This document shows, one piece after another, positions 15,091 through 15,303 of a stretch of 64,000 bases of DNA (position 1 is the first letter of the stretch; the number at the start of each line of letters is the position of its first letter). This DNA comes from an uncultured Chloroflexia bacterium (lineage in GTDB: Bacteria > Chloroflexota > Limnocylindria > Limnocylindrales > CSP1-4). The notes under the pieces were generated by a model that saw only the letters and a list, made by a program, of their open reading frames with translations, ran no database searches and was not told where the DNA came from. The DNA is taken from the NCBI GenBank assembly GCA_963813535.1, contig CAWEZH010000002.1:1728001-1792000 (forward strand), written 5' to 3'. The position numbers and the translations under genes are program-made.

Positions 15091-15174
15091 TCACCAGCGA
15101 CGAGCGAGATCGCCGATCAGGGCGAGGGCGACGGGCAGCAGGGCGACGAGGGACTGGCGGATGCGTTCAGACAT
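15091..15174 (-). CDS. 27-aa hydrophobic micropeptide MSERIRQSLVALLPVALALIGDLARRW
   Basis: GGAGGT RBS upstream, mostly C/G-ending codons, TGA stop, and a candidate -10 (GATACT) near 15262-15269. The C-terminus matches the peptide at 4365. Confidence 0.7.
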   Translation of the reverse strand: MSERIRQSLVALLPVALALIGDLARRW

Positions 15175-15303
15175 GGGCGGCTCGACCTCCGCCGGACCCG
15201 GTACCGGCTCGCTCGACGGCCGACCCCATCGAGGAGTGCCCGGTCGTATGCCGTGGCGGCCAGTATCGCCACGGCCGCTTAGCTGCGGCTTATCAGCCGC
15301 GCG

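Follow-up and report, generated by a model that had tools for sequence, protein, structure and literature searches.

Small membrane proteins that regulate larger membrane targets are a known class, as described in a review (PMC12648545). The element analysed here, a gene for a 27-residue micropeptide, lies in a window (the whole stretch of DNA that was analysed, 64,000 nt, G000:C2:1728001-1792000) of the 3.28-Mb genome, with 69.5% G+C, of an uncultured Chloroflexia bacterium of the order Limnocylindrales (the source genome, G000). The closest described counterparts of the micropeptide are proteins of the AcrZ, KdpF, MgtS and CydX kind, associated with AcrB, KdpABC, MgtA and cytochrome bd, respectively, with which it has in common a size below 50 amino acids, one transmembrane helix (predicted in the case of the micropeptide), translation signals of its own and the lack of a catalytic domain. 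Several such small proteins are encoded beside their transporter. In contrast, the micropeptide gene converges on a transporter operon instead of lying within it, and three paralogous families (A, B and C, the last one represented by the gene in question) are found per genome. Moreover, there is no sequence relation to the described proteins: 45 members of the three families, searched against Pfam and NCBIfam at E ≤ 1, matched 0 families, the only hits being the chance-level ones to TraQ (E 0.09) and Pardaxin (E 0.47), each with one member.

Two other kinds of systems invite comparison. Type I toxins such as TisB, Hok, Ibs, Ldr, Fst and AapA1 are also small hydrophobic single-helix peptides with a long conserved 5' leader (PMC12648545), but the micropeptide gene differs from them in being core, single-copy and syntenic, and in having a Shine-Dalgarno (SD) sequence that is not sequestered in the consensus folds. 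Cis-regulatory leader RNAs (Rfam riboswitches and protein-binding leaders) share with the region preceding the gene a constrained leader, a covarying stem and a conserved loop located 5' of the SD; however, this leader has no Rfam match, and it would control a micropeptide gene and not an enzyme or transporter gene. The micropeptides represent a new family within a known kind, that of the small membrane proteins, together with a candidate new leader RNA motif, and no new mechanism is revealed by them. The reading favoured here, held at about even confidence, is that of a small protein crossing the membrane once, which would regulate or accompany a larger membrane protein.

Judged by comparison with its relatives, the micropeptide open reading frame (ORF) is a genuine stand-alone coding gene whose protein is under purifying selection. 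An earlier reading of the window, made from its letters without database searches (the sequence-only reading), had described at this place a minus-strand ORF with a GGAGGT ribosome-binding site and a candidate GATACT -10. The ORF is present as it was described, with the same translation of 27 amino acids, and GGAGG and GATACT are found in front of it. The gene and its ribosome-binding site are located as follows:

15091..15174, minus strand: micropeptide ORF of family C, from ATG to TGA, 27 amino acids plus stop (84 nt including the stop codon).
15186..15190, minus strand: ribosome-binding site GGAGG, 11 nt 5' of the ATG, conserved in the leader alignments.

The minimum ORF length in a common gene caller is 90 nt, and the micropeptide ORF, with 84 nt, falls below it. 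Genes this small are mostly missed by annotation, and in this case it is comparison alone that shows the gene to be real. The G+C content at its in-frame third codon positions (GC3) is 0.81.

A 226-nt DNA query comprising leader and ORF found a match in 98 of the 101 genomes of the genus at E ≤ 0.01 (62 of them at E ≤ 1e-6), although most of these matches span query positions 17-126, which represent the non-coding part and not the ORF. The ORF was followed locus by locus. A first set consisted of the 30 best loci, of which 29 were long enough to be used, and in all 29 a small hydrophobic ORF with a ..[AG]-x-[RK]-W end comes after the leader. A strict pattern (M, a basic N-end, 14-24 further residues, [AG][RK]RW or G[LF]KW, 0-3 more residues and a stop) fits 25 of these ORFs, while the other four (L050, L058, L059 and L062) are GTG-started or extended ORFs of the same kind. 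A second set, formed by 20 further leader-positive loci, was kept out of every profile. The loop core of the leader was recognized, with up to 2 mismatches, in 17 of these loci, and GGAGG followed 6-12 nt later by a start codon and a hydrophobic ORF of 25-44 amino acids was present in 16. In all 16 ORFs, [KR]-W falls among the last 9 residues, and in 13 of them among the last 3. The remaining four loci showed no such ORF; three of them lacked the loop core, and in the other one, which had the core, the script found no ORF. The orthologues in relatives keep the start, the frame and the ..RRW end, and the occurrence of the gene, single-copy and near-universal in the genus, is like that of a housekeeping accessory. 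One genome, G064, has two copies of leader plus family C ORF (G064:C7:12585-12786 and G064:C3:460424-460625), and every other listed genome has one.

With respect to selection, seven orthologues of 27 amino acids, compared in 21 pairs, show a proportion of synonymous differences (pS) of 0.39 and a proportion of nonsynonymous differences (pN) of 0.14, which corresponds to a ratio of nonsynonymous to synonymous rates (dN/dS) of about 0.28. Values for sequences grouped by length, which bring together unequal subclades, lack meaning and were left aside. When six genomes were paired with G000, the peptide gave a pS of 0.36 and a pN of 0.12, and the YHS-domain gene encoded next upstream gave 0.42 and 0.09, respectively. 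These similar rates, together with the low dN/dS, bear out the selection on the protein that the sequence-only reading had proposed. In the same six pairs, the p-distance of the leader is 0.12, about a third of the synonymous rate.

The leader that precedes the gene, of roughly 80-110 nt and with one copy in G000, is a candidate new RNA motif that is under stronger constraint than synonymous sites. The leader and the promoter region in front of it contain the following elements:

15275..15294, minus strand: 20-nt promoter-upstream motif GATAAG-Y-CGCAGCTAAGCGG, nearly invariant in 25 aligned leaders.
15262..15267, minus strand: candidate -10 hexamer GATACT, conserved in the leader alignments and supported by comparison with other genes.
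15221..15246, minus strand: leader hairpin 1, with stem CGACC/GGTCG and a conserved 16-nt loop beginning GGGCAC-TCC, supported by covariation.
15191..15208, minus strand: leader hairpin 2, with a GC-rich stem GCCGG/CCGGC abutting the ribosome-binding site, from predicted folds.

Hairpin 1, in which 4-7 contiguous pairs close a loop of 15-18 nt that starts with GGGCA-Y-N-CC, was recovered in 45 of 47 leaders, the other two having been mis-anchored by the script. Its second pair is C-G in 35 leaders and U-A in 12; the fifth is C-G in 29, G-C in 3, G-U in 3 and U-G in 2; and the sixth appears as four pair types (U-G, C-G, U-A and G-C). These pairs were counted arm by arm because RNAalifold yielded a poor consensus on the 47 leaders, with 6 pairs, as a result of MAFFT misplacing the 3' arm. 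An alternative inner hairpin, ACUCC/GGGGU, which is preferred by single-sequence folding, was discarded because a G-to-A change found in 12 sequences breaks it and yet is compensated in hairpin 1. As for hairpin 2, single-sequence folding of 46 leaders predicts a GC-rich hairpin in most of them, its sequence varying between clades (for example, GCGGC/GCCGC or CCGAC/GTCGG), and it is also present in the consensus folds. The GGAGG of the SD is unpaired in these consensus folds, and a few leaders pair two of its G residues when folded as single sequences. A further hairpin of G000, located around GATACT, was considered as a terminator or RNA stem and rejected, as its flanks vary and keep no consistent register in the alignments. 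Searches against Rfam at the gathering score returned nothing for the leader and only two tRNAs in the window plus L001 (the locus of the third peptide, described below), whereas at E ≤ 10 the region 14950-15600 (651 nt) gave four chance-level matches of 10-14 bits, versus cut-offs of 38-76.

The 20-nt motif, followed after 7 nt by a TAnnnT hexamer, is also encountered in G000 at C3:270499 (plus strand; L129:501), and five other genomes have it at the seven loci that were inspected in them. At these other genes, the hexamers in register with GATACT are TAAGGT, TACGGT and TACCGT. The gene behind the motif at G000:C3:270499 and at five of the seven other loci encodes a membrane-anchored protein of 240-250 amino acids. 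The protein from G000 carries SLBB and HHH_3 domains and is ComEA-like, and those from the other genomes were assigned by the similarity of the first residues of the ORF. Since motif, spacing and hexamer are shared with other genes, the sequence-only reading's call of GATACT as a -10 element gains support, and co-regulation with comEA is suggested. The shared motif would point either to a small common regulon with comEA or to a copied promoter. No -35/-10 pair of the sigma-70 type passes a simple consensus scan.

From its N- to its C-terminus, the micropeptide shows a short basic segment (M-S-E-R-I-R), a hydrophobic helix that spans ~17 residues, and A-R-R-W as a basic/aromatic end. Over 17 residues, the Kyte-Doolittle mean peaks at 2.15 (residues 8-24), and the flanks have charges of +1 and +2. 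The relatives from the second locus set, of 25-44 amino acids, reach means of 2.2-2.9 over 15 residues. In the alignments, the transmembrane-like helix is the variable part, while the conserved parts are the membrane-interface flanks. Two paralogues of the micropeptide are encoded in G000:

4365..4466, plus strand: first peptide, family A, 33 amino acids, ending in EAARRWN, behind a DUF5317 gene.
G000:C2:1855578-1855676 (L001:5578-5676), plus strand, outside the window: third peptide, family B, 32 amino acids, ending in AARRW.

The first peptide is ~10.6 kb away from the micropeptide, the distance already reported in the sequence-only reading, and the third was found by reading the 26 ARRW ends of G000. 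A profile built from the three peptides revealed no fourth member in G000, where the next E value is 0.35, and matched 24 of 24 genomes of the same genus at E ≤ 10 (21 of them at E ≤ 1e-3), with matches that form three families. The members of family A have 31-33 amino acids and those of family B 31-35, and in all three families a start codon, ATG or GTG, is retained some 27-35 codons ahead of the stop. The highest conservation is that of family B, with a mean column identity of 67% in 20 sequences, a G-P in the helix and an A-A-G-x-K-W end. Comparison of the profiles of A and B with hhalign yielded a probability of 95.3% (E 2.1e-8) over all 33 columns, and the two families are therefore homologous. 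Family C appears to be tied to them less firmly, by its design and its C-terminal motif. The proposal of a dispersed family sharing its C-terminus consequently stands as regards the common [AG]-x-[RK]-W end, the existence of a third member and the kinship between profiles, but in a weaker form for family C.

The first peptide is present letter for letter in the ESM Atlas, where the nearest clusters are unnamed proteins of 33-34 amino acids, and neither it nor the micropeptide matched any family in Pfam (E ≤ 0.01) or NCBIfam (E ≤ 10). In another genome (G005, L010:1419-1700, plus strand), a weaker family A-like hydrophobic stretch (..ALASSALVLEAGSR) is found ~40 nt downstream of the family A peptide, in another frame or ORF, and may be a decayed tandem copy of it.

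The three micropeptide families are confined to Limnocylindrales, an uncultured soil lineage. Family B has been found in 63 of the 201 genomes of the order and in 14 of its 32 genera. Its distribution by genus is uneven, with 29/29 genomes in the source genus, 14/16 and 5/5 in two others, and 0/17, 0/13 and 0/16 in three more. By taxonomic family, it is present in 61 of 158 genomes of that of the source genome and in 1 of 42 of a sister family with small genomes. Weak matches of the three-peptide profile in sister-family genomes of 1.0-1.4 Mb were set aside, as none of four profiles gave a convincing one, the best having an E value of 0.07 within four small loci. The record titles at 59 of 60 loci correspond to metagenome-assembled genomes of Limnocylindrales, Limnocylindria or Chloroflexota, and the remaining title, Gelidibacter, corresponds to a partial match of 18 residues that was taken as chance. 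When the family B profile was run against 1.84 billion representative proteins, 67 clusters were retrieved at E ≤ 1e-3 (32 at E ≤ 1e-10), each match ending at the C-terminus, and the 10 clusters looked up all had 'hypothetical protein' or nothing as a name. No paper with both 'Limnocylindria' and 'small protein' was found in the library searched.

The micropeptide gene is flanked in the window by two genes:

13384..15084, plus strand: convergent neighbour, fused potB/potC-like ATP-binding cassette (ABC) permease of 566 amino acids, with two BPD_transp_1 stretches; a possible partner.
15304-15474, minus strand: upstream neighbour on the same strand, YHS-domain gene, 56 amino acids (Pfam E 3.8e-16).

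The stop of the permease gene and the stop codon of the micropeptide gene are 6 nt apart. Convergence on the potC 3' end, which the sequence-only reading had noted in the window, holds at 30 of 30 loci (tblastn). The convergent stop codons are separated by 0-9 nt in 20 of the 25 loci measured and by 20-60 nt in the other five, and no terminator-like site was found between the convergent genes. At a distance of 0-9 nt the two transcripts overlap, unless one of them ends inside the other gene. On the opposite side, the upstream gene varies, and can be YHS, SelR/MsrB behind YHS, MarR with an AcrB-type pump, or DksA-like. The ORFs of 77-122 amino acids that appear 'downstream' in some loci are antisense frames of potC and were dismissed.

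The potB and potC sequences are fused in G000 and are separate genes in its relatives. In the closest of them, G024, leader and ORF are 93% identical in DNA, but PotC, encoded apart from potB, is only 60% identical in protein, in contrast to the 74-81% observed in other genomes. In addition, divergence in the DNA alignment sets in a short distance beyond the abutting stop codons. These data give the convergent junction the appearance of a recombination joint.

An inverted repeat, TACTCC-CGGG-GAGTA, is situated just 5' of the YHS gene (window about 15490-15510, minus strand) and is conserved in three aligned genomes. It resembles operators of CsoR-type copper repressors, and a Caa3_CtaG-type assembly gene is encoded near it (16860-18272, minus strand).

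The preferred reading, that of a small membrane regulator or companion, accords with a predicted product of 27 amino acids with one transmembrane helix, with the SD and start codon that the gene has of its own, and with the selection that acts on the protein. According to this model, the micropeptide gene would be driven by its own promoter, formed by the 20-nt motif and the GATACT -10, and the structured leader would set when the peptide is translated. The peptide would then insert into the cytoplasmic membrane and, in the manner of other bacterial small membrane proteins, alter how active or stable a larger protein is by binding to its transmembrane part. By its position, the adjacent Pot-type importer would be the first candidate partner.

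Several observations weigh against this proposal. The choice of the importer as a probable partner derives only from the position of the genes; genes whose products form a complex are not usually arranged convergently, and a gene order conserved within a single genus may reflect nothing more than common descent. A complex prediction for the PotC-like permease and a 30-residue family C peptide, which scored 0.00 in two runs carried out without controls, gave no answer and counts neither for nor against the proposal. The family C protein profile finds only 30 of the 101 genomes of the genus (E ≤ 0.01), largely those from which it was built, which implies rapid drift of the helix, in contrast to the retained ends and leader. 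Family C is linked to the other two families mainly by the C-terminal motif, since hhalign probabilities are 88% over 13 columns with A and 34% over 9 columns with B. Finally, the sole evidence of expression is one contig of 184 nt (15097-15280) from one run labelled as metatranscriptomic, with a depth of about 2.4. All the runs compared with the window consist of contigs, from which the starts and ends of transcripts are not readable. Neither the YHS gene nor the end of potC is covered by the metatranscriptomic run, although uncovered parts mean nothing, and in a DNA run one contig spans 15061-15446. The 184-nt contig begins ~13 nt upstream of the candidate -10, a misfit to a start at that promoter, and it may represent DNA or read-through; it is a weak hint at the transcription of the leader and ORF unit and not at a start site.

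The sequence-only reading had considered these peptides primarily as precursors, and had mentioned small membrane regulators or type I toxin-like peptides as an alternative, which fits the data better. The toxin-like version of that alternative, in which the silencing of a membrane-damaging peptide would depend on the structured leader and on antisense pairing, either to the 3' end of the pot transcript or to a small RNA, is the main competitor of the preferred reading and is considered unlikely. The size and make-up of the micropeptide do match those of type I toxins, which have fewer than 60 amino acids, one helix and short flanks according to the review cited above (PMC12648545). The long leader, more conserved than synonymous sites, also agrees with it, as do the convergent stops, separated by 0-9 nt in 20 of 25 loci, the transcript overlap that this forces, and the lack of any terminator-like site found between the convergent genes. 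However, type I toxins are patchy and often multicopy, while the micropeptide gene is single-copy and occupies one fixed place in most genomes of the genus. Moreover, the ribosome-binding site is free in the consensus folds, with hairpin 2 stopping just short of it, and family B is highly conserved in sequence, unlike most toxins. Constraint on synonymous sites is not clearly stronger in the ORF than in the YHS gene (pS 0.36 versus 0.42), which gives no indication that a selected antisense RNA overlaps it. A simple consensus scan, which is a weak test, showed no promoter-like site on either strand, the opposite one included, and no antitoxin RNA was identified. In summary, the core, single-copy distribution and the free SD speak against the toxin-like function, and what keeps it under consideration is the forced overlap together with the strong conservation of the leader. 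A different and rather improbable explanation is that the transcript matters more than the peptide. Promoter and leader would then drive an RNA antisense into potC that tunes the pot operon, and the role of the ORF would be mainly that of loading ribosomes or stabilising the RNA. It is in line with this idea that the leader is more conserved than the ORF, that the leader DNA is still found in genomes where the peptide profile (30/101) no longer detects the protein, and that the stop of the ORF abuts a potC that converges on it in 30/30 loci. Nevertheless, the start, the length of 25-44 amino acids, the hydrophobic core and the [KR]-W end are kept in very divergent members, with a dN/dS well below 1, and in families A and B, where the peptide design is the same, the next gene lies about 100-155 nt away, an ordinary distance of terminator size.

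Two further explanations were considered. The sequence-only reading had proposed precursor peptides served in trans by one maturation protein, that is, a ribosomally synthesized and post-translationally modified peptide (RiPP) whose shared enzyme could be, for example, the DUF5317 protein. This proposal is now regarded as very improbable. In its favour, the C-terminal motif is common to dispersed small ORFs, and the DUF5317 gene is ahead of family A in 5 of 8 loci. Against it, the genes beside A, B and C include none of the modifying enzymes, proteases or exporters that characterize such clusters, and the design of the peptides (a basic N-flank, a hydrophobic membrane helix and [AG]-x-[RK]-W) shows neither a leader-plus-core organization nor a core rich in Cys, Ser or Thr. 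Besides, the DUF5317 gene is present whether or not a peptide is found. This membrane protein family (PF17248) occurs in 154 of the 158 genomes of the taxonomic family, usually with 2-4 copies and including genera in which no peptide was found, and it was not found in the 42 genomes of the small-genome sister family. The comparison of 154/158 with the 61/158 genomes that have family B means that there is no specific co-occurrence of the kind the sequence-only reading had suggested examining, and DUF5317 adjoins only family A. As for chance, short ORFs are frequent in intergenic DNA at 69.5% G+C, and the motif statistics taken alone give a borderline result. The terminal motif proposed in the sequence-only reading is found in 2 of 87,683 stop-to-stop segments of the genome, exactly the two peptides already known. 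With the M-x(18,35) prefix, there are 2 real matches versus a mean of 0.33 in 12 second-order Markov genomes, 8 of which give 0 matches and 4 give 1, and ARRW-x(0,2)-stop, with 26 real occurrences versus a simulated mean of 21.7, is at background. The excess over background is only borderline, and the count is weak by itself because the motif was defined post hoc on these same two peptides. For this reason, the comparative evidence was used as the test instead. The retention of the frame across dozens of genomes with synonymous change, and the conservation of the SD and the start codon, make a chance ORF barely credible, and in practice this explanation is refuted by the comparison with relatives.

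Going back to the membrane protein reading, a more specific version of it can be formulated as a long shot. The leader would be a new sensing RNA, with a ligand, a protein or a small RNA recognizing the loop of hairpin 1, and would switch on the micropeptide together with comEA, and the peptide would act on the Pot-type importer, or else its mRNA and the pot mRNA would silence each other via their 3' overlap. If true, a micropeptide would connect a competence-like programme with an importer of the Pot type, putatively for polyamines, in a soil lineage without cultured members. The candidate leader RNA motif and the shared promoter motif are handles that can be tested in a surrogate host.

Regarding the surroundings of the other two families, family A, apart from its DUF5317 neighbour, is near an S9 peptidase in 6 of 8 loci. 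No paper with 'DUF5317' was found in the library searched. Some DUF5317 sequences are included in open frames of about 650-930 amino acids, so that fused forms may exist. In the case of family B, a cupredoxin-like neighbour was observed in 14 of 22 loci, an AlaX-like one in 19 and a convergent LuxR-type regulator in 17, in a scan limited to the two nearest GC3-filtered ORFs per side, in which misses do not equal absences. The family B peptide of G000 is encoded between a divergent gene for a cupredoxin-like lipoprotein and a convergent LuxR-type regulator.

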